Shown here: positions 29,864 to 64,000 of the stretch, piece by piece | Layout of the letters: every line of letters begins with the position of its first letter | Numbering within the stretch: position 1 is the first letter of the stretch | Assembly: GCA_963826535.1 (NCBI GenBank) | Contig: CAWGXL010000011.1 | Coordinates: 728,581-792,580, forward strand | DNA length: 64,000 nt | DNA from: an uncultured bacterium | GTDB lineage: Bacteria; Patescibacteriota; Microgenomatia; Levybacterales; UBA12049 | Direction: 5' to 3' | The notes under the pieces: model-generated | What the model was told of the DNA's origin: nothing | The model's database searches: none | The model's input: only the letters and a program-made list of their open reading frames with translations | Made by a program: the position numbers and the translations under genes

Positions 29864-30409
29864 TTAACAACCGGGGGCAAGGGGGTTTAGTTTGACTCCC
29901 AGTCCGCGCAGGCTTTCTGAGGTTTGAGTATTCATGTAAAACACAATCGGTAAATTACATATTCCGTTCTGGCTTAATTTTTTGCTTTTGAACCATGTAA
30001 CTGCCGCATCTTTGGCGCTTTCGATACTAACTGTTATGATCTCAACCTGAAAAGTATCAGGAACAGGGTAATAACTGATACTGATATCTTCTGTTTTGTA
30101 TATTGGATTGGTACCCGCAATAAGTGTCTTTTTTATTGCCTGATCGGAAACTGACAGAGGTTTTCTATTTGCCAATATGTCATTTAATTTCTGTCTGCTG
30201 GTTTCCTCATAGGTTATCGGAGGCTCGGCTGTCTTTGTTACGGGTGGCTTTACCTGCGTCTTTTTATCATCTGAGGATTTTTTTAAGGCAAATGCTACGA
30301 TCAGGAGAACTACCACAACTACAACAATTAATATGATGATCAAATTTTTTTTCTTTAGCATAAGATTGGTTTTCATATAATTATATAATTTTATTAACGT
30401 TGTTTGCAA
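29864..30409 (-). CDS. hypothetical membrane-anchored extracytoplasmic protein
   Basis: N-terminal TM IIILIVVVVVVLLIVAFAL. Same strand as, and downstream of, the Cys-rich secreted proteins. Confidence 0.4.
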   Translation of the reverse strand: MQTTLIKLYNYMKTNLMLKKKNLIIILIVVVVVVLLIVAFALKKSSDDKKTQVKPPVTKTAEPPITYEETSRQKLNDILANRKPLSVSDQAIKKTLIAGTNPIYKTEDISISYYPVPDTFQVEIITVSIESAKDAAVTWFKSKKLSQNGICNLPIVFYMNTQTSESLRGLGVKLNPLAPGC

Positions 30410-31404
30410 AAGCCATTGATGCAGTCCCGAGTTGGTTCATTACAATCTTTTTTTACATCACATCTAATTGGTTCTATGCATCTGCCACGTATACCAGATA
30501 TGTCACCATAAATCTGGCATCTTTGATTTCCGGGACAACCTCTATCATGGCCACATCCACGCGGGGTGCCGCTGCTACAGTATGGCAGCATATAAGGATT
30601 TTGTATACAGGATGCATTGGAGCAGTAAACGGGGAGGCCAGCAGTGGCTTCGTAGTAACAAGCGACGCAGCCTTCATCTGACTGGCCGTCTCCGTTATTA
30701 TCAATATAATCACCGCAGATTTCTGTTGCTGCTGGTGGGGGAGGGTTTGCTGGAGGGTTGACTGGTGGGTTTGCCGGAGGAATGACTATGGGTGGCGGGG
30801 CTGCCGGAGGAAAGATGCAAGCAAAACCACCGTTATCTCTTGGTCCGGATGTATCCATACCAGGCGGACATGGTACTCCTGGGGCTGTGCCGCAAATCAA
30901 TGCTACCGTGCTATTTCCTAGCAATTGTTCAGTACCAGCCGGACATTGTCCCGGAACCGGAGGAGGTCCTGCCGGTGGTGCTGCAGGAGGTGCTGCAGGA
31001 GGTGCACCCGGAACCTGACAGACACCTGCATCGGGACAAATCAAAACGCCGGGGGCGCCGCAATCGGCATCGGTTATACATGGAGGCGGTGCTTCGCCAT
31101 CTACCTCACTATTGTCCTGATAGGTTGCGCAACCGGGGTCTTTGGGGAGGCCTGCCGCTCCAGCGAAGTCAGCCGTGCCATCCTGATCATTGTCCGCTCC
31201 ATCGGCGCATTGACGAGCGGCGCATTGAGGTCCGGCAGGAGGCTGCGGACTTTGCGCGAAAGCTTTATTATTATCATGTGGATGCAGGAGAGCAAATAAG
31301 CCTCCAAGCATTAATAAAGGGATTATTAAAAGAAATACTTTCTTAGGAAATTTTAGGATGAGATAATTAGTTTCTTTTTGATTTAGCTTAAGATTTTTTT
31401 TCAT
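30394..31404 (-). CDS. secreted Cys-rich, Pro/Ala-rich protein with DxDxDG-type putative Ca-binding Cys motifs
   Basis: N-terminal anchor KFPKKVFLLIIPLLMLGGLFA. Motifs CADGADNDQDGTAD and EICGDYIDNNGDGQSDEGC. PPAAPPAAPPAGPPP linker. High local GC. Confidence 0.5.
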   Translation of the reverse strand: MKKNLKLNQKETNYLILKFPKKVFLLIIPLLMLGGLFALLHPHDNNKAFAQSPQPPAGPQCAARQCADGADNDQDGTADFAGAAGLPKDPGCATYQDNSEVDGEAPPPCITDADCGAPGVLICPDAGVCQVPGAPPAAPPAAPPAGPPPVPGQCPAGTEQLLGNSTVALICGTAPGVPCPPGMDTSGPRDNGGFACIFPPAAPPPIVIPPANPPVNPPANPPPPAATEICGDYIDNNGDGQSDEGCVACYYEATAGLPVYCSNASCIQNPYMLPYCSSGTPRGCGHDRGCPGNQRCQIYGDISGIRGRCIEPIRCDVKKDCNEPTRDCINGFCKQR

Positions 31405-31422
31405 ATTATTAAATTATTTTAC

Positions 31423-33333
31423 TCAAGGTGTAACACCGCATATAGTTTCTCCTTCATCTACAACGCACACTCCTGGGCCCGGTAGAACTGGACCGCCCCC
31501 CGCCGGCGCATAGGGTCCCGTGTGTCCGCTTTGGGTGTTATGGGAAGAGTACCATTTTCTAGTATGACGACCGAGCGGGCCGGTGACGATCTCATCGTCG
31601 AAGTGGTACGGGTTGTTCGCACGATACCACCGGCGCGTGTGGCGTCCTTGGGGGCCATCGATGATCTCATCTTCTACAAATCCAGGATTGTTATTCTCGT
31701 ACCAAATACGCGTGTGGCGTCCTTGGGGGCCATCGATATATTGTGGCGCTTCCCAATTCGTGGCACCTCGGTCACCCGGTGCTCTGAGAGGTATGTGGCT
31801 AAGCTCAGGCCAAGCGCAGTTTTCATTTACTTGAGCATTGCCATTATTATCAATACCATCACCGCAGATTTCTACTAGAGGCGCATTCTGAGGTTTTTGA
31901 CAGGTACCATTGGTACAAGTTAATTGGGAGTCGCAGCATCCTGCTTCAGGTGTGCAAGCCGCTAGCGCTTGTGCGCATGCTGCAGCAGGGGGGTTTGCCG
32001 GGGGCGGATTTGCCGGATCTACCGGAGGCGGGGCGGCTGCGCCGGCTGACTCAGTATCGTCCAGAAGGTCTGTACAGTCCGTGTCAGCGGGGAGACCTTG
32101 CGCTCCAACGGCGTCTGCCGTGCCATCGATGTCATTGTCCATGCCATCGGCGCATTGGCGCGGGGAGCAGAGACCAGGCGGGGGATTTACACAAACAAGG
32201 GTAACATCATCGCATTTTAGCGGGGGGCTACAAGGCTTAGTTCCGCCACAAGTTTCACCTATTGTAGTTGGAGCTGTGACGGTGAACTCGACTGTATTAC
32301 TTTGTTTACTCCAGTTGCCTACGCCGACCGCATCCCGATACATGCTAAATGCTTTATATACACCGGTTTTATCATCTACCTGAATAGTAAGCTCGGCTAC
32401 CACGGCTATTTCTTTTCCCGGTGCCACTGTCGTCGCGCCTATTTCGGGAGTAAGAGTAAAAGCTACAATGGTATCGATGGGATCCGGATCTTTGGCATCG
32501 ATCACTATTTTTTTGACGCTAAAATCTGTAGTACAGGGATTTTTGTAAGTAATAGTACCTTTGACTTTTTCGCCCGGGACAACATTTGTTTTATCAAGGT
32601 CAAGCGGTACTAAGACAGTTAATCCTGTACAGGCAGGTACAGGCGAAGCCGCAGGCTGACAAACATCATTGACACATTGCTGGTTAGGGGCGCAAAACTT
32701 AGGAGGGTCGCCGCAGAGAACTGCAGATTTACAAGTCCCGTCAGTGTCACATGTCTCATCTGCGCCACAATCGTTGGAGGTTGTACATGTTGCAGGTGTA
32801 GTTGCCGGAGAAGCGCCTGTTGAAGTTCTGGTTGCTGCAGATAATCGGCAACTTCTATTGACACATGTCAAGCCAGTTGCACAGTCACCTGTGTTTGAAC
32901 ATACTTGTCCGACCGTTTTAACATCAAGGATGGGAGTACCCTTGCATGCACCGAGTGCCATACAATAGAATTGGGGGGATTGGTTTACGTCGTTGAAGAT
33001 TTCTTCAGCGCCCCAGGTGCAGCGGACGGGGGTGTTTTGTGTACCCGCAACTTTACTTTGACAGGCGGTCTTTGCTTCATCACGAGTCAAATTGTCTATC
33101 GCCTCTACTTGGGCTCCATCGATAGTTGCAACATATTTTGCTTTGGCAGTGTTGTCAGTTTGTGCAAAGGTACTTATATTTTCAGGTGATTGCATAAAAG
33201 CAAACAGGCCTGCAAGCATTAATAAAGGTAGAATCAGGAGAAAACCAATCTTGGGAAATTTAATACTGAAATACGCAGGATCTTTTTTCTTATCAACAAC
33301 AGATACAGATTGGGCAGTTTCGTTTTGAGTCAT
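31423..33333 (-). CDS. large secreted Cys-rich protein, paralogous at both termini to the previous one
   Basis: N-terminal anchor KFPKIGFLLILPLLMLAGLFA. Motifs CADGMDNDIDGTAD and EICGDGIDNNGNAQVNENC. Three C-terminal repeats of about 25 aa, GP(Q/L)GRHTR-WY. Confidence 0.5.
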   Translation of the reverse strand: MTQNETAQSVSVVDKKKDPAYFSIKFPKIGFLLILPLLMLAGLFAFMQSPENISTFAQTDNTAKAKYVATIDGAQVEAIDNLTRDEAKTACQSKVAGTQNTPVRCTWGAEEIFNDVNQSPQFYCMALGACKGTPILDVKTVGQVCSNTGDCATGLTCVNRSCRLSAATRTSTGASPATTPATCTTSNDCGADETCDTDGTCKSAVLCGDPPKFCAPNQQCVNDVCQPAASPVPACTGLTVLVPLDLDKTNVVPGEKVKGTITYKNPCTTDFSVKKIVIDAKDPDPIDTIVAFTLTPEIGATTVAPGKEIAVVAELTIQVDDKTGVYKAFSMYRDAVGVGNWSKQSNTVEFTVTAPTTIGETCGGTKPCSPPLKCDDVTLVCVNPPPGLCSPRQCADGMDNDIDGTADAVGAQGLPADTDCTDLLDDTESAGAAAPPPVDPANPPPANPPAAACAQALAACTPEAGCCDSQLTCTNGTCQKPQNAPLVEICGDGIDNNGNAQVNENCAWPELSHIPLRAPGDRGATNWEAPQYIDGPQGRHTRIWYENNNPGFVEDEIIDGPQGRHTRRWYRANNPYHFDDEIVTGPLGRHTRKWYSSHNTQSGHTGPYAPAGGGPVLPGPGVCVVDEGETICGVTP

Positions 33334-53759: not shown

Positions 53760-54125
53760 ATGTCTAAAGTGTTGATAATTGAGGATGATGAGAGTTTGCG
53801 AGCTGTTTACCGGGAAGAATTTGAAGGAGAAGGATTTACAGTCGAAACCGCGAATGATGGTCAGGAGGGGATTGAAAAGTTGGCTTCATTTCTACCGGAT
53901 GTATTGCTTCTAGATATGCTGATGCCGAAAAAGAGTGGATTTGATGTGTTAAAGCATATGAAAGATAATCCGGAATATAAACATATTTCTACTCTTGTTA
54001 TTACAAATATATATACAGATTCACGAGATCTGGTGCAGAATTGGGGGGTTTCATTTGTTCTACTTAAGGTGGATTATACCCCGGGTCAGATAGTTGCGAA
54101 AGTGAGAGAACTTCTTAAAAACTAA
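53760..54125 (+). CDS. stand-alone response-regulator receiver domain
   Basis: VLIIEDDESLR, then the phospho-acceptor Asp in LLLDMLMPKKSG, then a KVDY region. Confidence 0.75.
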   Translation: MSKVLIIEDDESLRAVYREEFEGEGFTVETANDGQEGIEKLASFLPDVLLLDMLMPKKSGFDVLKHMKDNPEYKHISTLVITNIYTDSRDLVQNWGVSFVLLKVDYTPGQIVAKVRELLKN

Positions 54126-55790: not shown

Positions 55791-56381
55791 TTATTGAGGT
55801 TCCGGGGGGAGGAATTCTTCTCCGCCGCTGTCGTTTGAGGCGGGTTTTTGGGGATATTCGTGGGGTTTGAGCCAGTAGATATAGGGGCATCCTGTTGCTT
55901 TTCTTGCTTTGGAATCCCAGCCGGCGGTGCTGCATTTTTTCATTTTTTTGCCGCTAACAGTCGTGTAGAGGATTAGTTTGCTGCCACACTCTGGGCATTC
56001 TTCGTCAAGCTGTTCCGTCGTGCCGTTTATCCACTCGACATAATCACATCCTACAGTTTTCTTGGTTACTTTGTCCCAACTTCCGGTTGAGCATTTTTTC
56101 ATTTTCTTTCCAAAGCGGGTGACCGCGAGGACTAATTTTGAACCGCATTTGGGACACTTTTCATCTAACTCTTGCGGTTCAACTTCAAGCCACTTTACGT
56201 AGTCACATCCAATAGTTTTTCGCGTTTCCATATCCCAGGATCCAGTGGAGCAGCGTTGTAATTTTCTTCCTGTTTTTGTGAGTGTTATTTCTCCGAGCGG
56301 GCTGCCGCATTTGGGACAGATATCCTTTGATGGGTTCTGGACTGTGTCTTTTGGGATTGTTTTATCGTCGGCTTTTGCCAT
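55791..56381 (-). CDS. stand-alone protein with three topoisomerase-I-type C4 zinc ribbons
   Basis: Three repeats of CPxCGSxL...GKKxxKCSTGSWD...GCDYVxW. Confidence 0.55.
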   Translation of the reverse strand: MAKADDKTIPKDTVQNPSKDICPKCGSPLGEITLTKTGRKLQRCSTGSWDMETRKTIGCDYVKWLEVEPQELDEKCPKCGSKLVLAVTRFGKKMKKCSTGSWDKVTKKTVGCDYVEWINGTTEQLDEECPECGSKLILYTTVSGKKMKKCSTAGWDSKARKATGCPYIYWLKPHEYPQKPASNDSGGEEFLPPEPQ

Positions 56382-56465: not shown

Positions 56466-57386
56466 ATGGAAAAACAACAAAATGGAATTGGATTTGGAAT
56501 GCTTTTGGGAGGAATAGGTGCGGGGATTTTTATTATTATGGTTATTTTTTTAGCGTTTAAATACTTCAATGTTAATTCTTTACAAGAAGTACTTTATCCC
56601 GGCTCTTCCCAACCAAGTCAGTCAGCAAAACAAAATACTAGTGATATAGATCCAGCAATAATTATCGCGAAGGTTGGTGCTGAAAATATTTATCAAATAG
56701 ATTTAGATATGGAGATTTCCGGTTATCCAATGCAAATAAATGAAGATATTAAGAAGCTGCTACTGCAAAAAGTTGTAAAAGATTCAATAATTTTGCAAGC
56801 GGCTAATGCTGAAAAATTAATAGATCTTGATGAAAGCGTATTTAATTCACTACAAAAGGATTACATAAAACGGACAAAGCTTGTTGCGGATGCCCGAACA
56901 ATCTATGAAAACAATCAAAATAGTATCAGCGGAAGCGTAATTTCTATCTGGTTTTATAATATGCAACCCGGTGCGGTTGGATATGATAAAGGGAAAGAAA
57001 TAGCATTTAACAAAATCACTACATTACACAGCAACTTAAAAAGTAAAAAGATTACGATACAACAGGCTGCCCAAGTGATAATAGATGACAAATCATTGGC
57101 GCAGGTTGATGAATCGTATGATTCAAACGCGATACTTACTTTTAAAGCAGAACCCAAAGATGAAATTACCTTTGATCCTGTTTTTGACAGTCTAATCCGG
57201 CAGCTAGCGCAAGGTCAAATATCTAATATTTATTTGGCTAAAGATAAAAACAGGGATACAGATAAGATGATAGATGCAGTATATATGTTTGCCCAAGTGA
57301 ATGAGAGAAATACAACCGGAAAGACAATTGATTTTGACATGTGGTACGGACAAAAAGAAAAAAGCTATGAAATTGTTTACTATTAA
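56466..57386 (+). CDS. hypothetical membrane-anchored extracytoplasmic protein
   Basis: N-terminal TM GIGAGIFIIMVIFLAF. 306 aa. Confidence 0.4.
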   Translation: MEKQQNGIGFGMLLGGIGAGIFIIMVIFLAFKYFNVNSLQEVLYPGSSQPSQSAKQNTSDIDPAIIIAKVGAENIYQIDLDMEISGYPMQINEDIKKLLLQKVVKDSIILQAANAEKLIDLDESVFNSLQKDYIKRTKLVADARTIYENNQNSISGSVISIWFYNMQPGAVGYDKGKEIAFNKITTLHSNLKSKKITIQQAAQVIIDDKSLAQVDESYDSNAILTFKAEPKDEITFDPVFDSLIRQLAQGQISNIYLAKDKNRDTDKMIDAVYMFAQVNERNTTGKTIDFDMWYGQKEKSYEIVYY

Positions 57387-59475
57387 AATATTTATATCTT
57401 TAGTATTTTTCTTAGTGCTGTTATTTTCTGCAGCAGCGGAAGTGAATGCTAATGTACCGGATGTGATCGGACAAGTAGTCACTTCAACCGGCGCTCCTGT
57501 GAGCGGAGTATGGGTGAAATGGACAGATGGTGAAGGGCATTATAGATATGACAAGACAGATGGTAATGGCAATTATTTTTTTATATCTTGGGATGCTCTT
57601 AGTACAGCACAAAAAACTTCGCTTATGAATACAAACATTGATACAAACCTTGATGGGTCAAATGACACTAATCAGGCAAATGATAATGGGGGGAGGGCTT
57701 TTAGTTGTTTGACAAATAAGCATGCTTTCAGCGTAGTACGTCCTGTGGGAATGACAGGGAATTTTAGTACAATAACTAATATAACAGTAAACAATGGAAA
57801 TAATACAATTGTTTTAAGTGATATGATTTTCACGTCTACTGCAGCTACGCCAACTCCCTCTCCAACATTTACTCCCACACCAACACTAAATCCTTTATTT
57901 ACCCCCACACCTACAGTGACGCCAGGAGGACCGACACCAACTCCTCCAGGACCCACCTCGACACCAACGCCCTCACCTACACCTGTACCAACTTCAACGA
58001 TAACCGGGAGAATCTTCATTGACACTAATTTGAATGGAACACAAGATGGCGGAGAGTCTGCATTTTCGGGGGGGGCTGAAATTATCGTCACGGGGACTTC
58101 TTATGCTAGAACAATAACAGACGGGGCAGGAAATTATTCATTCCCAAGTCTTTTTGTTGGTTCTTATACTGTATATGTGTCTATTCCTAATAATTATAGC
58201 TCAACAACTTCTACAAATGTAAATGTAACTATAGCTCCGGGTGGTATTGTGAATTATGGTATCGTCCCTTCGTTTTCCGTAATTGGAAACATATTTAACG
58301 ATATTAATAAAAATCTCAGGATGGACAGCGGTGAAACAGTCATACCAAATGCAGAAGTGGATTCAACAGGAGGGACATTTGCCCAGAATAATGGTATTTA
58401 TGAAATTCAAGATCTGAAAGCCGGAACATACACAATAACTTACATAACTCCATTGCCAAATGGTTTTTATATGATATATCCTAAACCACCTTCATTTCAG
58501 GTTACAGTTGGCCCGGGTTGTATTACGGATACTACAACAGGCGCTGTTTGTTCTGCGCGAGGTGATATTACAGATCTGAATTTTTCAGTAAGTGATTCGT
58601 GGCCCTGGCTGCAAACCTATGGCTTGGATCTGCGTTTTGACAATGGTGTGACTAATCTCCTCCCAGCAAGTACAACATGTGGAGGAGGTTCATACGCTTC
58701 AGGGACAGGAGGAGGATTTTCAACTCCCGGTATAAACTTTACCGGTGACTCGAGCGCAGACTTTGGACAAGGATCAGCTTCAAGCAATAATTGGGTGGTA
58801 GGTGGAATATCTTATCCTGAAGTTTTCAAAGGTAACAATCCTTTGAAGACCTCTACACAAAGTCTTCGCACATTGGCTCAAAAAGCAGGGATTCCCTTAA
58901 TTTCCCTAAGCAGTGTTGCCGGGTGCTCAAATCCTGCAACTGACTGTAATCTGCCTAATAATTTGGCGCAAGGAGTCTATGTTACAAATGGGGATATACG
59001 ATTTAGAAGACAGTTTACCAGTACATTTGTGACCGGGAACACATATGTGTTTATCACAGGAAACAACAGTAATATGTTTTTCGAGAATAATGCAAGAACA
59101 ATTGTGCCACTTGGAGCTACGGTTATTTTCTCAGCGGGACTTGATATGTTGATTGACCCAACAATTCGCCCAGCAACAAACACTTGTCCTGTACCCGCCG
59201 GGCAATTACAGGGTATATTCAGTGCTGACAGGCATATCATCATCTCAGGCAATAATGGGGATTGTTTGCTACCTGCCGATTCAATGCTTAATATTGACGG
59301 CACATTGATTATCAATGCAGAAAAAATCTCAGGTAAATTTCAGAACCAGAGAGACCTATGTGCCGATAATCGTTCTTTTCCTTCTTTAACAATTAAAGCC
59401 AGAGCTGATTTTATTCTCAATACTCCCGGTTTTCTGACACAACAACAAACAATTACATATGAGGAGACGCCGTAG
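57367..59475 (+). CDS. large secreted surface protein with a Thr/Pro linker and SdrD-B/Cna-B-like domains
   Basis: Signal peptide MKLFTIKIFISLVFFLVLLFSAAAEVNA. TPTPSPT linker. GRIFIDTNLNGTQDGGE...TDGAGNYSF...GSYTV repeats. Confidence 0.55.
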   Translation: MKLFTIKIFISLVFFLVLLFSAAAEVNANVPDVIGQVVTSTGAPVSGVWVKWTDGEGHYRYDKTDGNGNYFFISWDALSTAQKTSLMNTNIDTNLDGSNDTNQANDNGGRAFSCLTNKHAFSVVRPVGMTGNFSTITNITVNNGNNTIVLSDMIFTSTAATPTPSPTFTPTPTLNPLFTPTPTVTPGGPTPTPPGPTSTPTPSPTPVPTSTITGRIFIDTNLNGTQDGGESAFSGGAEIIVTGTSYARTITDGAGNYSFPSLFVGSYTVYVSIPNNYSSTTSTNVNVTIAPGGIVNYGIVPSFSVIGNIFNDINKNLRMDSGETVIPNAEVDSTGGTFAQNNGIYEIQDLKAGTYTITYITPLPNGFYMIYPKPPSFQVTVGPGCITDTTTGAVCSARGDITDLNFSVSDSWPWLQTYGLDLRFDNGVTNLLPASTTCGGGSYASGTGGGFSTPGINFTGDSSADFGQGSASSNNWVVGGISYPEVFKGNNPLKTSTQSLRTLAQKAGIPLISLSSVAGCSNPATDCNLPNNLAQGVYVTNGDIRFRRQFTSTFVTGNTYVFITGNNSNMFFENNARTIVPLGATVIFSAGLDMLIDPTIRPATNTCPVPAGQLQGIFSADRHIIISGNNGDCLLPADSMLNIDGTLIINAEKISGKFQNQRDLCADNRSFPSLTIKARADFILNTPGFLTQQQTITYEETP

Positions 59476-59477
59476 AA

Positions 59478-59948
59478 TTATTTTTGGATTCTATTTCTTT
59501 TTGATTTTTTTCTTCTTGTAAATTCGCGGAAATAGTGATTGTGAAGTTTTTTAAATTCCTTGTGTAATTTTTCAAGTTCTTCATCGGAAAGATCTTCTAT
59601 ATTTACCAAGCTATTTCTAGCTCCTTTTACTGCCCTGATTAATTCATCTAATTTTAATTGTGTTGCTTTCGCGTCTCTGTTTTGCGTGTTCTGGATTAGA
59701 AAGACCATGAGGAAGGTTATTATAGTTGTTCCGGTATTGATGACTATTTGCCAGGAATTAGAATAGTTGAAGTATGCCCCGGATACAGCCCAAGCGAGAA
59801 TTAAGAGCAAAGCAGCTATAAATGTCCAAGGAGCTCCTACTGCATAGGAAATTTGGTTTGCTATTTTGTGAAATGAGTCATTCATATATTTTGGGTGGAG
59901 CTGAAAGTGATTATAGCATATGTATTTCAGGTCAAAAGTCTTATGCAA
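59478..59948 (-). CDS. small membrane protein of the low-affinity iron permease (Fet4-like) family
   Basis: WQIVINTGTTIITFLMVFLIQNTQNRD...LKLDELIRAV resembles that family's conserved core. The start is probably the internal Met at 59885. Confidence 0.5.
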   Translation of the reverse strand: MHKTFDLKYICYNHFQLHPKYMNDSFHKIANQISYAVGAPWTFIAALLLILAWAVSGAYFNYSNSWQIVINTGTTIITFLMVFLIQNTQNRDAKATQLKLDELIRAVKGARNSLVNIEDLSDEELEKLHKEFKKLHNHYFREFTRRKKSKRNRIQK

Positions 59949-60089
59949 ATATTAAGAAGAATGTGGTATATTGTAAAGGATAAGACCCACCATTTCCCGA
60001 TTAAATCGGAGAGTCCTGCCTGCAGACGCCTTGAGCGTCAGCGATTGACGGGCAGGGCTTTAGCGGCGGGTAAGAGGGGAGGTGAGGAT

Positions 60090-60626
60090 ATGGATAATAA
60101 TCAAGAAAATACAAATACAACACCAAGCCAGTCTAGTGGGCAGGGAAAAAGTGGTATGAATCTTTTTATTCCTATTGCAATAGTTGGTCTAATAGTAATA
60201 GTTTTGGTAGGAATATTTGCTTTTCAAGGACAACAAAAAGAAAGTCCATCAGTTGTCAAGGAAACAGAACAAACTCCGACTAATGCCGGTAATTCAACTG
60301 AAACTCCAACAATAGTTTCTCAAGCGACAGATTATAAAGATGGTACATATAAAGCGATTGGAAATTATACAAGTCCAGGTGGAGCTGAGCAGATTGATGT
60401 TTCTGTTACTATTAAAGACGATATCATTGAGAATGCGGAGGTAAAGTCGATTGCGCAGCGGCCAAATACAATAAAATTCCAAGGTATATTTGTTGCGAAT
60501 TATGAACCATTTGTTGTCGGGAAAAATATTGATGAAGTAAAGCTCGATAAAGTATCGGCTTCTTCTTTGGCTCCAAAGGGATTTAATGACGCGCTTGAGA
60601 AAATAAAGGCTGAGGCAAAAGCATAG
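60090..60626 (+). CDS. membrane-anchored FMN-binding-domain protein
   Basis: N-terminal TM IPIAIVGLIVIVLVGIFAF, then DGTYKAIGNY...VSVTIKDDIIENAEV...DKVSASSLAPKG, which resembles FMN_bind domains including the flavinylation motif region. Confidence 0.55.
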   Translation: MDNNQENTNTTPSQSSGQGKSGMNLFIPIAIVGLIVIVLVGIFAFQGQQKESPSVVKETEQTPTNAGNSTETPTIVSQATDYKDGTYKAIGNYTSPGGAEQIDVSVTIKDDIIENAEVKSIAQRPNTIKFQGIFVANYEPFVVGKNIDEVKLDKVSASSLAPKGFNDALEKIKAEAKA

Positions 60627-60808
60627 ATATAGATTATTGATCTATTGTGCCGCGGGTCCTGTCGGTCGTTTCGTCTGCGCATGTCAAGGAAGTGAGCTCG
60701 GATTTTGTCCTCCGCTCCGTCCGACAGCATCCTTCGCTTCGCTTGGTCTAGGCGCTCGAGGGGGACCACGCCCGCCACCCGCTTGCGGTCTATGGTTTTG
60801 ACAAATAT

Positions 60809-61738
60809 ATGCTAAGTTGGGTATTTGATGCGATTGGTACTAAGTGGCAGATTGATATTAATTCTTCGTTGCCGGTTAATAAACGGATTTTTTTGGAAAA
60901 ACTTATACGGAAACGGATTGATGAATTTGATAAAACTTATTCAAGGTTTCGTTCTGATTCACTTATTAGGAAGTTAGCTGTAAAAAAAGGGAAGTATCTT
61001 TTGCCTCCTGACGGAGATGCTTTGTTTAAATTTTACGATCAGCTTTACAAGTTGACGGGAGGTTTATTTACTCCACTGATAGGGCAAGTGCTGGTAGATG
61101 CGGGTTATGATGAAACTTATTCTTTAAAGCCTAAAAAACTCCACCATCCGCTATCTTGGGATGAGGTATTAAATTATTATCCACCGGATAACAGTCGGCA
61201 CCCGGCCTCGCCATATGTAATTATAAAAAAACCTAGTATTCTTGATTTTGGCGCAGCAGGAAAAGGGTACTTAATTGATATCGTGAGTGAAATTTTAGAA
61301 GAGAAAGGTGTCGCTTCTTATTGTATTGATGCCGGAGGAGATATTCGATATCGCAATGATAAAAAGAGAACGCTTCGGGTAGGGCTGGAGAATCCTGACA
61401 ATTTTCAACAAGTTATTGGAGTAGCAGAAATTACAAATGAAAGTATTTGCGGCTCTGCTGGAAATAGGCGGAAGTGGGGGAAGTATCATCATATTATTGA
61501 TCCTTTTACTTTGTCCTCTCCACAAACTATTCTTGCTACATGGGTTATAGCGCCGACAACAATGCCGGGTACCAGTCGGTACCCGACTATGCTTGCTGAT
61601 GGATTGGCAACGTGTTTATTTTTTGTCTCACCTGAAATACTCTTGAATAAATTTAGTTTTGAATATATTATTATGTATAGTGACTATTCGATAATGAAGT
61701 CAGTTGGGTTTAATGGGGAGCTCTTTGTTAATGAATGA
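60809..61738 (+). CDS. apbE: FAD:protein FMN transferase (ApbE family)
   Basis: LDFGAAGKGYLID and CIDAGGDIR motifs. Confidence 0.75.
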   Translation: MLSWVFDAIGTKWQIDINSSLPVNKRIFLEKLIRKRIDEFDKTYSRFRSDSLIRKLAVKKGKYLLPPDGDALFKFYDQLYKLTGGLFTPLIGQVLVDAGYDETYSLKPKKLHHPLSWDEVLNYYPPDNSRHPASPYVIIKKPSILDFGAAGKGYLIDIVSEILEEKGVASYCIDAGGDIRYRNDKKRTLRVGLENPDNFQQVIGVAEITNESICGSAGNRRKWGKYHHIIDPFTLSSPQTILATWVIAPTTMPGTSRYPTMLADGLATCLFFVSPEILLNKFSFEYIIMYSDYSIMKSVGFNGELFVNE

Positions 61739-61782
61739 TGACTGATTATTGATGGGGTTGTGGCAGAAGTTTTTGATTAAGT

Positions 61783-63312
61783 ATGATAAGGTTTGTTGAT
61801 AATATTATTAATTCAATAACGATGTATAGGCTTGTTCTATACGGATTAATCGTACTGGCAGCATATGCTATTGTATGTGGGTTTTTGGGTGTTCTTCCTT
61901 ATAGCGGACTTCAAATGATTGCTTCAGTTATATTGTGGCTTCTTGTTTGTTATGTCGCAAATTGGCTGCTTGCAAAAGTTTTTAATGCTCAAACAAATGT
62001 AGAATCCTGGGCAATTACCGCGCTTATTCTTTTCTTTCTATTTATGCCACTAACACTTCAGCCAGAATCAGTGTTATCAGAAGTGTGGATACCTATTCTT
62101 GCAGGAGTAATTGCTATGGCTTCAAAATATATATTTGTAATAAAAAGACAACATATTTTTAATCCTGCCGCGTATGCTGCGGTAGTTCTAAGTTTTAGCC
62201 CCAGTACTGTAGCATTATGGTGGATCGGAAGTCCTGTAATGTTGCCTATTACGCTAATTGTGGGATTTCTGATTGTCCGAAAGATCCGCAAATTTAGCAT
62301 GTTTTTTTCTTTTGTTGCGGCCAGCTTAGTCGGGACATTTATTTTGGGAATCCAAACGCAGAATTTAAGCACGGATCTTTTTGTTCAAATGATTCTCTCG
62401 GGACCACTTATATTTTTGGGCACAATTATGCTTACTGAACCATTAACAACACCGCCACGGAGAAAATTGCAGATGATTTATGGTGCTCTCGTTGGGATAC
62501 TTTCTACATTACAATTTAATATTGGTCCACTCTATTCAACGCCGGAGCTGGCGCTGTTTATAGGGAATATTTTTTCCTATATTGTCGGTCCAAAACAAAA
62601 ACTATTTCTTTATCTTAAAGAAAAAAGTGAGATCGCAGAGAACACACATGAATTTATTTTCGAGTCTCAAAAGTTAAAGGCTAAAGCCGGACAATATTTG
62701 GAATGGACATTGCCCCATCCCAGCCCAGACAGCCGGGGTGTGAGAAGATTTTTTACTATTGCTTCATCCCCAACAGAGGGCGAGGTTAGGCTTGGGGTAA
62801 AGATTGGTAAAAATGTGAGTAGCTTCAAGAAACAACTTTTATCTCTTGAGAAAAATGCTCCGGCAATCGCAACTTCGTTGGCTGGAGATTTTGTACTGCC
62901 GGATGATCATAGAAAAACACTGGTTTTTATAGCCGGAGGTATAGGCATAACGCCATTTCGTAGTATGGTAAAATATTTGCTAGATAAACAAGAAAAGCGG
63001 ACTATAACTTTGTTATATTTCAATAAAAATGTTAGTGAGATCGCATATAAAGAAATTTTTGATCAAGCGGGGGATAAAATGGACATGAAAACTGTGTATA
63101 TTCTTACTGATCGCGAACGTATACCTTCAGGATGGAAGGGTGAGGTAGGCAGGCTAGACGCGCAAATGCTTTCTCGTGCAGTTCCTGACGCCGCGACGAG
63201 AATATTTTATCTTTCCGGGCCAAATGCGTTGGTGAATAATTATAAGCGTATACTTTTGGCTACCAAGATAAGCCGGAAAAATATAGTCACAGATTATTTT
63301 CCGGGGTTTTAA
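61783..63312 (+). CDS. polytopic membrane domain fused to an FNR-like FAD/NAD(P)-binding oxidoreductase module
   Basis: About 8 TM helices, then RRFFTIASSP (RxFS FAD motif) and VFIAGGIGITPFRSM (NAD(P) motif). Confidence 0.6.
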   Translation: MIRFVDNIINSITMYRLVLYGLIVLAAYAIVCGFLGVLPYSGLQMIASVILWLLVCYVANWLLAKVFNAQTNVESWAITALILFFLFMPLTLQPESVLSEVWIPILAGVIAMASKYIFVIKRQHIFNPAAYAAVVLSFSPSTVALWWIGSPVMLPITLIVGFLIVRKIRKFSMFFSFVAASLVGTFILGIQTQNLSTDLFVQMILSGPLIFLGTIMLTEPLTTPPRRKLQMIYGALVGILSTLQFNIGPLYSTPELALFIGNIFSYIVGPKQKLFLYLKEKSEIAENTHEFIFESQKLKAKAGQYLEWTLPHPSPDSRGVRRFFTIASSPTEGEVRLGVKIGKNVSSFKKQLLSLEKNAPAIATSLAGDFVLPDDHRKTLVFIAGGIGITPFRSMVKYLLDKQEKRTITLLYFNKNVSEIAYKEIFDQAGDKMDMKTVYILTDRERIPSGWKGEVGRLDAQMLSRAVPDAATRIFYLSGPNALVNNYKRILLATKISRKNIVTDYFPGF

Positions 63313-63314
63313 AG

Positions 63315-64000
63315 ATGAAAACTAAATTAATTATTTTAGGGATTGTTGTAATTGTGGTTATTTTTATACTAGGGTTGGTTTCAAATAAGAGCACGCCTCC
63401 TCCTGAGACTGAACCGAATACAACAATAAAGCCGACAGTCGAAGTTGACGCTGACGAGGTCAGTATAATCGCCGAGAATTTGGATACACCTTGGGGTATA
63501 GCTTTTCTACCTGATAATATTATATTGATTACTGAACGACCAGGGAGAGTTAGGCTAATTGGAGCCCATGGAGGATTACAATATGATCCGGTCATAGTGT
63601 TAAATCAGGTAAAAGAAGTTGGCGAGAGTGGTCTGCTTGGAATTGCTCCACATCCGGATTTTTTGGGGAATCAGTATGTATATCTATACTACTCATATGG
63701 TGTTCAAGTTAATAGGCTTAGGAATGATACAATTAATAGAGTGGTAAGGATGAAATTTCAGAATAATAAACTTATAAATGAACAAATTATTGTAGACGGC
63801 ATTCCTGGTTCGGATAATCACAACGGCGGAAGAATGCATTTTGGGCCGGATGGCTATTTGTATATTACTACGGGAGACGCGCAGGATGTATCACAAGCAC
63901 AGGATACTTCTTCATTGGCAGGGAAGATTTTACGTGTTACAGATGAGGGCAAACCAGTTTCCGGGAACCCATTTGGTAATTTAATATATTCATACGGGCA
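63315..64000 (+). CDS. soluble beta-propeller sugar dehydrogenase (glucose/sorbosone dehydrogenase-like), 3' partial
   Basis: Signal/anchor, then NHNGGRMHFGPDGYLYITTGD and HPDF...LY motifs. Runs off the end of the window. Confidence 0.55.
   Translation, partial: MKTKLIILGIVVIVVIFILGLVSNKSTPPPETEPNTTIKPTVEVDADEVSIIAENLDTPWGIAFLPDNIILITERPGRVRLIGAHGGLQYDPVIVLNQVKEVGESGLLGIAPHPDFLGNQYVYLYYSYGVQVNRLRNDTINRVVRMKFQNNKLINEQIIVDGIPGSDNHNGGRMHFGPDGYLYITTGDAQDVSQAQDTSSLAGKILRVTDEGKPVSGNPFGNLIYSYG

Follow-up and report, generated by a model that had tools for sequence, protein, structure and literature searches.

Organization of the locus

The subject of this study is a 64-kb stretch of DNA from an uncultured member of the Patescibacteriota (assembly GCA_963826535.1, contig CAWGXL010000011.1, positions 728,581 to 792,580), hereafter the window, and within it a compact gene cluster that probably encodes a flavin-based electron-transfer system. 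Five genes occupy the interval from 59.4 to 64.0 kb, including every gene named in a preliminary description of this DNA, each on the strand given there. Three of these, designated genes 1, 2, and 3, are co-oriented neighbors. The preliminary description read the trio as a flavin electron-transfer module made up of a flavinylatable protein, the flavin transferase ApbE, and a membrane reductase of the ferredoxin-NADP reductase (FNR) type, and domain, motif, and synteny evidence sustains that reading. Pfam profiling covered the window proteins encoded at 48.5-64 kb and a few others. The features of the cluster, with flavin mononucleotide and flavin adenine dinucleotide abbreviated to FMN and FAD, are as follows:

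60090-60626, plus strand: gene 1, FMN_bind-like (NqrC/RnfG-like) subunit; 178 aa, membrane-anchored
60546-60566, plus strand: putative flavinylation motif D153-K-V-S-A-S-S159 (gene 1 residues 153-159)
60809-61738, plus strand: gene 2, ApbE-family FAD:protein FMN transferase; 309 aa; PF02424, E = 9.4e-38
61783-63312, plus strand: gene 3, RnfD/NqrB-like membrane domain plus FNR-type module; 509 aa
61783-62586, plus strand: N-terminal part of gene 3, polytopic RnfD/NqrB-like domain (~residues 1-268)
62599-63312, plus strand: C-terminal part of gene 3, FNR-type FAD/NAD(P)H module (~residues 273-509)
62743-62772, plus strand: RRFFTIASSP (gene 3 residues 321-330)
62935-62958, plus strand: GGIGITPF (gene 3 residues 385-392)

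A redox membrane domain fused to a reductase module

As had been proposed from its motifs, gene 3 encodes a polytopic membrane protein fused to an FNR-type module. The PF03116 family (NQR2_RnfD_RnfE) matches residues 149-265 (E = 1.6e-10; 41.3 bits against a curated cutoff of 27.7) and PF00175 (NAD_binding_1) matches residues 382-487 (E = 5.3e-16), together with a weak FAD_binding_6 match; RRFFTIASSP and GGIGITPF are both nearly invariant across 29 sequences of the family. A family profile of the FNR module finds cytochrome b5 reductase (9e-19) and the FAD/NAD domains of NqrF (1.2e-18). The AlphaFold2 model of the protein has a mean predicted local distance difference test score (pLDDT) of 83.7 and ~10 helical membrane segments in its N-terminal half. 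With Foldseek, its C-terminal half superposes on flavohaemoglobin and the FAD domains of NqrF (E values of 1e-15 to 1e-14) and, within the wider range of 1e-15 to 1e-13, also on b5 reductase.

When searched against the PDB as a single sequence, the membrane domain returned no match, and a 15-sequence profile of it gave a weak match to Azotobacter vinelandii RnfD (8ahx_D, E = 0.011, residues 223-327). The Pfam result and this profile match nonetheless identify the domain as an RnfD/NqrB-like redox subunit, and the objection foreseen in the preliminary description, i.e., that it might prove to be an unrelated transporter, has not materialized.

The alignment also reveals what the domain has given up. 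The gene 3 block SWPLIFF...MLTEPLTTPP... aligns with RnfD residues 223-327 and HIFNPAA aligns with FNPA at RnfD residues 121-124; of what lies between these anchors, the ~80 residues of RnfD 143-222 have a counterpart of ~13 residues in gene 3. No [ST]GA[ST] motif occurs anywhere in the gene 3 membrane domain. Since we take the RnfD segment 143-222 to be the extracytoplasmic loop bearing the FMN-threonine, the flavinylated loop of RnfD/NqrB has, by this alignment, evidently been lost. Positively charged residues flank the gene 3 helices (RKIRKF at 166-171, PPRRK at 224-228), which, with the cytosolic FNR module, suggests that both termini lie inside (N-in/C-in) and that the shortened loop faces outward.

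An ApbE-family enzyme and a divergent FMN_bind-like subunit

The identity of gene 2 as an ApbE is equally well borne out, both by its PF02424 match and by matches to solved ApbE/Ftp FAD:protein FMN transferases at 7e-9 to 8e-6 among PDB sequences (best, 6.9e-9). Across 22 sequences, the ApbE motifs DFGAAGKGY, DAGGD, SxGxRR, HHIIDP, and D264..T268 are conserved, with HHIIDP, DAGGD, and D264..T268 invariant or nearly so.

Gene 1 required correction of its start. The open reading frame (ORF) as listed opens at a GTG at 59895; since an alternative ATG at 60090 is preceded by GGAGGTGA and the homologues all begin at a Met matching it, ATG 60090 is most likely the true start. The resulting product has one transmembrane (TM) helix at ~residues 24-45, a seemingly uncleaved anchor that follows 23 polar residues, then a low-complexity linker rich in S, T, P, and Q, and a folded domain spanning residues 80-178. 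The latter is modeled by AlphaFold2 at a pLDDT of ~97, as three strands followed by helices.

The preliminary FMN_bind call for gene 1 stands at the level of the family. Among its 135 detectable homologues, some are named "FMN-binding protein" or "uncharacterized protein with FMN-binding domain" by their sources. A precomputed PF04205 call accompanies 5 of the 120 homologues listed, and 29 of 41 aligned family members match PF04205 (cutoff E ≤ 1; best, 2.4e-6), with no other family close. Gene 1 thus appears to belong to a divergent FMN_bind family, in a relationship that holds at family level. Foldseek gives weak matches to FMN-bind domains, RnfG, and NqrC; NCBIfam returned nothing useful for the window product, and the family profile searched against PDB sequences yielded spurious TM or coiled-coil matches only.

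The DKVSASS motif reported for this protein is indeed present, at residues 153-159, 19 residues from the C-terminus. In the 41-sequence alignment, the family consensus is DKVSGSSLTPKGFNDAL and the motif consensus DKVSGSS, with S159 invariant and S158 at least 90% conserved. Residue S159 occupies the acceptor position of the ApbE motif, published as D-x-x-[S/T]-G-A-[S/T] (PMC12052999), and in the structural model it directly precedes the C-terminal helix (H161-177). Homology and two published bioinformatic studies (see below) make S159 the predicted FMN-phosphoester site.

The three-gene unit in other bacteria

For comparison, we assembled 80 GTDB loci, each centered on a gene 3 relative. They represent numerous lineages of Patescibacteria as well as Ktedonobacteria and other Chloroflexota, Microbacteriaceae, Rhizobiales, and Spirochaetota. 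An ApbE gene is present in 55 of the 80, almost always directly upstream of the fusion gene. The window-type order (FMN-binding gene, ApbE, fusion) is found in 17 loci from Patescibacteria and Microbacteriaceae, where an ApbE of ~290-330 aa follows a DKVSGSS-type gene. A shorter and more distant ApbE-like gene (~250 aa, starting ...MGMPITVEIVD) is found in 38 loci, and 39 loci carry a canonical FMN_bind gene (VDIVSGATDTS), nearly always ~750 bp upstream of the fusion and just before the ApbE gene. The conserved unit in most of the 80 loci is therefore a three-gene cluster, be it the window-type trio or its canonical-FMN_bind variant. In the second arrangement, seen among L002-L066 (Ktedonobacteria included; e.g., L013, 6761-9518), the gene for an N-terminally anchored canonical FMN_bind protein precedes that for a signal-less short ApbE-like protein, and the RnfD-FNR fusion gene comes last.

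The other recurrent neighbors are generic and unrelated to Rnf/Nqr, namely an FtsX-type ATP-binding cassette permease and a histidine kinase/response regulator pair. The latter pair (histidine kinase and OmpR-type response regulator) lies a few kb from the fusion in ~20 of the 80 loci, often convergent directly after it (e.g., L019, 11568-12671; L048, 4861-5532). The window has a lone receiver-domain gene at 53760-54125, ~6 kb upstream of the cluster.

The wider family is large. Relatives of gene 3 form at least 7,998 clusters at 90% identity, a count obtained with a full-length query that also recruits other FNR-module proteins. The membrane domain alone finds 1,318 representatives at 50% identity (354 at E ≤ 1e-30), most of the matches being 480-515 aa long and hence fusions, and ApbE has 3,239 relatives at E ≤ 1e-10. 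Several of the best-matching metagenome-assembled genomes (those of L001, L016, L019, L023, L037, and L046) bear the title "uncultured Gammaproteobacteria" although their cluster is of the type found in the candidate phyla radiation (CPR) and they are nearest to clear Patescibacteria sequences; these bins may be taxonomically mislabeled.

Location of the FMN-binding subunit and of its ApbE

Gene 1-type homologues from five Microbacteriaceae loci and one Peribacteria locus (L006, L071, L076, L077, L078, and L080) begin with a signal peptide of the lipoprotein class that includes a lipobox (LAGC, VTGC, MVGC). Because these lipoprotein homologues carry lipoboxes, the FMN-binding subunit is placed, by the sequences of its relatives, outside the cytosol. 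A positive-inside analysis of 116 gene 1 homologues was uninformative (1.88 versus 1.78 lysine or arginine residues on the two flanks).

The window ApbE has neither a signal peptide nor a lipobox. It begins 8 residues ahead of the first conserved motif, FDAIGTKW, which aligns with approximately residue 23 of the ApbE chain 4xgw, a construct that, according to a review of ApbE, would itself lack the signal peptide. Upstream of the ApbE ATG there are only 19 in-frame codons, none of them ATG, GTG, or TTG. This is a property of the clade: in 118 of the 120 closest ApbE homologues, a median of 5 residues separates the start from the first conserved motif, and a hydrophobic 12-mer before the motif or a lipobox was found in none of the 120. 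Stop-to-stop ApbE ORFs at related loci, including those of the short ApbE type and those of the actinobacterial loci with a lipoprotein partner, likewise leave no room for a signal peptide. The lack of an export signal on ApbE, a feature that the preliminary description does not mention, complicates the earlier picture of extracytoplasmic flavinylation.

Assignment to the NQR/RNF-like systems and proposed mechanism

Méheust and colleagues (2021, eLife 10:e66878, PMC8238504) described an "NQR/RNF-like" system consisting of a PF03116-PF00175 fusion near ApbE or FMN_bind genes, defined operationally as a fusion with an ApbE (PF02424) or FMN_bind (PF04205) gene no more than five genes away. Both that study, which names CPR genomes explicitly, and a subsequent one by Huang and colleagues (2024, bioRxiv 10.1101/2024.03.13.584918, PMC10979944) report the system mainly from Actinobacteria and the CPR. 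In the latter, a two-subunit complex from Ktedonobacter was modeled with AlphaFold-multimer, such that the flavinylation site of the partner lies near the place where the RnfD-like subunit appears to bind a flavin non-covalently. That subunit does not retain the Thr that is flavinylated in NqrB/RnfD, and the covalent FMN of the partner is placed where the flavinylated loop would be (PMC10979944). The window locus has the fusion, with ApbE directly upstream and the FMN-bind-like gene before that, and the missing flavinylation Thr site of gene 3 agrees with the description by Huang and colleagues. We thus consider it quite probable that genes 1-3 together make up one such NQR/RNF-like system for flavinylation-associated electron transfer, akin to Na+-NQR and Rnf but minimal in form.

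Homology and the two bioinformatic studies together suggest the cofactors of this system and the direction of electron flow, as follows: (i) the cytosolic FNR module of gene 3 would oxidize NAD(P)H on FAD; (ii) electrons would cross the membrane via the RnfD/NqrB-like domain of gene 3, probably by means of a non-covalently bound flavin; (iii) ApbE would install FMN, derived from FAD, on Ser159 of gene 1 as a phosphoester; (iv) the FMN domain of gene 1, tethered to the outer face by its single TM helix, would take up the electrons; and (v) its covalent FMN would hand them to an extracytosolic acceptor, with flow being one-way and outward.

With the published NQR/RNF-like systems, the window locus shares the PF03116-PF00175 fusion, ApbE, an NqrC/RnfG-like subunit, the lack of a flavinylated Thr, and a distribution across CPR and Actinobacteria. 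This CPR/actinobacterial subtype differs in its divergent FMN-bind protein (DKVSGSS, with SASS here), mostly below the Pfam threshold. It also differs from the Ktedonobacteria-type loci among the 80, in which a canonical FMN_bind protein (SGAT) is paired with a ~250-aa ApbE-like gene, whereas the ApbE clade here is of ~290-310 aa. With Na+-NQR (NqrA-F) and Rnf (RnfABCDGE), it has in common the NqrF-like, NqrB/RnfD-like, and NqrC/RnfG-like modules and maturation by ApbE. Unlike those complexes, it comprises two polypeptides; the cluster encodes no NqrD/E or RnfA/E iron center subunits, NqrA, or RnfB/C, and its RnfD-like domain offers no site for covalent FMN. Moreover, electron flow is presumed to be one-way and outward here, in contrast to the semicircular path, coupled to ion pumping, of Na+-NQR and Rnf.

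Several observations weigh against this assignment. The FMN_bind call fails for the window gene 1 product itself, which has no Pfam FMN_bind match even at E ≤ 10. Its Foldseek matches are all above E = 0.001, with IscU scoring equally to the FMN-bind domains and interleaved among them. DKVSASS departs from the published motif at two of seven positions (G to A and A to S), giving SASS rather than SGAT, and a G-to-A change in the motif of another target cut flavinylation to ~50%, without abolishing it (PMC12052999). Across the 80 loci, no family recurs directly beside the fusion except the FMN-binding gene and ApbE, and neither a terminal acceptor nor a fourth conserved gene was found. We found no experimental characterization of any NQR/RNF-like member in the literature searched. 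Finally, a signal-less ApbE alongside an exported FMN-binding domain constitutes a topological conflict.

Patescibacteria of the CPR are usually described as fermentative, without respiratory chains. A conserved conduit from NAD(P)H to a surface flavin would let such cells shed reducing equivalents or reduce iron, host-surface molecules, or oxygen. The preliminary description considered such a chain notable for a fermentative lineage; the gene cluster is real, and the point had already been made, with CPR members published (PMC8238504), albeit as a bioinformatic proposal only. The system is therefore one already described, and this cluster, a clean and compact example from a genome of ~0.9 Mb, adds to a published, bioinformatically defined kind. 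What goes beyond those papers is that the family is far larger, and the system much commoner, than the published count of 127 NQR/RNF-like clusters (PMC8238504), and that its ApbE clade is systematically without export signals. The same survey called flavinylation "strikingly underrepresented" in the CPR (PMC8238504). With a signal-less ApbE and a divergent FMN-bind protein, many CPR clusters would have been missed in it, which may have contributed to that statement.

A possible cytosolic role for the signal-less ApbE

Characterized extracytosolic flavinylation relies on secreted, usually lipidated ApbE, and cytosolic ApbEs have been described for cytosolic targets only (ApbE review). A text search of the Méheust and Huang papers (PMC8238504, PMC10979944) found no mention of a missing ApbE signal. 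The conflict could be resolved in several ways. It is plausible that the near-C-terminal motif of gene 1 is modified in the cytoplasm before translocation, because ApbE accepts the 7-residue motif as a peptide tag, which it modifies most efficiently at termini (PMC12052999), and the gene 1 motif lies close to such a terminus. Alternatively, it is possible that a second, secreted ApbE is encoded elsewhere in the genome, or that the ApbEs of this clade do something else in the cytosol.

We would only tentatively extend the first or the last of these to the subtype as a whole, i.e., that a cytosolic ApbE flavinylates the DKVSGSS of the exported subunit before its tail crosses the membrane, or else that the signal-less ApbE serves some other cytosolic purpose, such as FAD pyrophosphatase activity, FMN supply to the membrane subunit, or the modification of another cytosolic target. 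The absence of an N-terminal extension, hydrophobic stretch, or lipobox throughout the clade speaks for such a role, as does the precedent of the cytosolic ApbE of Klebsiella pneumoniae, which acts on a soluble FMN-containing fumarate reductase and has no signal peptide either. In Klebsiella, however, the target is cytosolic, whereas the one recognizable target that the cluster encodes is exported and anchored, either in the membrane or by a lipid. We found no precedent for a Sec substrate that is exported with its flavin already attached, and the literature treats covalent attachment as extracytosolic. Moreover, while the 64-kb window holds only one ApbE, a second, secreted one could lie beyond it. 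We thus regard a cytosolic site of action as a possibility that falls short of an even chance. Were it true in either form, ultrasmall bacteria would be able to assemble a flavin wire that faces outward with no export of FAD, and the reported scarcity of extracytosolic flavinylation in the CPR would largely be an artefact, created by the signal-peptide filter and the Pfam threshold of the survey.

Flanking genes and the question of iron uptake

The cluster is flanked by the remaining two genes of the interval, and two non-coding segments adjoin gene 1:

59478-59948, minus strand: iron permease gene; 156 aa; PF04120 (Iron_permease), E = 1.9e-51, full-length match
59975-60089, plus strand: 5' leader of gene 1; GC-rich, forms a stable hairpin
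60627-60808: spacer between gene 1 and ApbE; 182 nt, GC peak 71%
63315-64000, plus strand: glucose/sorbosone dehydrogenase (GSDH) gene, truncated by the window edge; PF07995, E = 2.3e-44

The position of the permease raises the alternative that the system is a ferric reductase for iron uptake, the outer FMN reducing Fe(III) or Fe(III) chelates and the adjacent permease importing Fe(II). The PF04120 gene is divergently adjacent to gene 1, with which it shares an intergenic region, and VIT1 iron transporters occur in 6 of the 127 published NQR/RNF-like clusters, for some of which iron assimilation was suggested (PMC8238504). However, a permease homologue is found in none of the 80 related loci, and no other iron-related family recurs among the neighbors there.

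Comparison with the closest relative for which DNA is available (L081; gene 1 product 84% identical) points the same way. There, at positions 840-880, the stop codon of an SdrD-like gene lies 13 nt before the gene 1 start, with no permease between. The permease gene and the GC-rich leader (59476-60089, ~610 bp) are therefore extra in the window genome, and look like an insertion specific to it. We accordingly judge the ferric reductase reading unlikely, and the iron permease is rejected as a functional partner. The electron-transfer reading put forward above, in which the acceptor is left general, is the one we retain.

The GSDH gene begins 3 nt past the gene 3 stop and is probably co-transcribed with gene 3 here; its product has an N-terminal hydrophobic segment or anchor and is probably membrane-anchored or secreted. 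With a homologue in 2 of the 80 related loci, it is likewise rejected as a functional partner. The Fet4-like permease and secreted sugar dehydrogenase of the preliminary description are hence present nearby as stated, and neither is a conserved partner of the module.

Further upstream, the window encodes on its plus strand (57301-59475) a 724-aa secreted-looking protein with SdrD_B/CarboxypepD_reg Ig-like domains and a long Pro/Thr-rich linker, which is also the upstream neighbor in L081. On the minus strand (55791-56381), it encodes a 196-aa protein with three CPxCG...C zinc-ribbon repeats (Zn_ribbon_Top1-like), a homologue of which lies directly upstream of the cluster in L082 (4073-4564, minus strand). 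The three genes of the cluster abut in L082 (58% identical), where Zn-ribbon and YgjP-like genes are found upstream just as they are in the window. Since the zinc-ribbon gene adjoins the cluster in L082, this suggests that genes for a 306-aa protein, the 724-aa SdrD-like protein, and the permease were inserted between the zinc-ribbon gene and the cluster in the window genome.

Known multi-subunit and Listeria-type systems as alternatives

Two further alternatives are both very improbable. The first is that genes 1-3 represent a fragment of an ion-pumping Rnf/Nqr complex, the other subunits being encoded elsewhere. On such a view, one would expect gene 3 to be homologous to RnfD/NqrB and NqrF and gene 1 to RnfG/NqrC, as they are. 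In gene 3, however, the RnfD-like and NqrF-like parts form one chain, from which the RnfD flavinylation loop is missing and whose NCBIfam rnfD, nqrB, and nqrF scores are far below the cutoffs; the RnfA/E, NqrD/E, RnfB/C, and NqrA families, moreover, do not recur beside the fusion in the 80 loci.

The second is an extracellular electron transfer (EET) locus of the Listeria monocytogenes type (FmnB, PplA, Ndh2, EetA/B, and DmkA/B), in which PplA is flavinylated by FmnB and Ndh2 supplies the electrons through demethylmenaquinone and EetA/B. The likeness is real in that an ApbE-family enzyme adjoins a surface FMN-binding protein in a monoderm, with presumed electron delivery to extracytosolic acceptors, but input and conduit are combined here in one fusion of an NAD(P)H-FNR module with an RnfD-like domain that needs no quinone, ApbE is not lipidated, the gene 1 product contains a single FMN-bind domain as against the two of PplA, and EetA/B, Ndh2, and Dmk-like families do not recur in the 80 related loci. 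The preliminary description had named both Nqr/Rnf maturation and the Listeria-type locus; of these, Nqr/Rnf, in a stripped-down form, is the apter comparison, and the Listeria FmnB/PplA/Ndh2 locus is not.

Non-coding and other features of the window

The gene 1 leader (59975-60089) has a minimum free energy of -46.4 kcal/mol versus -33.9 ± 3.3 for shuffled sequences (z = -3.8), and its hairpin pairs a 5' arm, CCCACC, with the Shine-Dalgarno sequence GGAGGUG. The leader is missing from the two closest relatives, L081 among them, and does not recur in the window; its hairpin is possibly a translational control element or a by-product of the insertion. The spacer at 60627-60808 is a GC island, with its 71% peak measured in 80-nt windows. 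It has no excess structure relative to shuffled sequences on either strand (z = -0.15 and -0.12), no second copy in the window, and no counterpart in L081 or L082; in L081 a 116-nt AT-rich spacer separates gene 1 and ApbE, and in L082 the two genes are contiguous. One minus-strand frame is open throughout the spacer, without recognizable features. Searches of Rfam (the whole window at gathering thresholds, and 59800-61000 at E ≤ 1) returned no riboswitch or RNA family for the leader or spacer. We treat both segments as genome-specific, and they have no bearing on the main conclusion.

The window has a GC content of ~39%. A tRNA search found none in it, and a promoter/terminator scan gave hits at background level only. 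Elsewhere in the window, two long ORFs (336 and 636 aa) on the minus strand at 30394-33333 overlap GC islands of 66-74% (80-nt windows). Neither has a significant Pfam match, and the first contains a sub-threshold MopE-like metal-binding motif; they may encode low-complexity surface proteins or represent foreign DNA.

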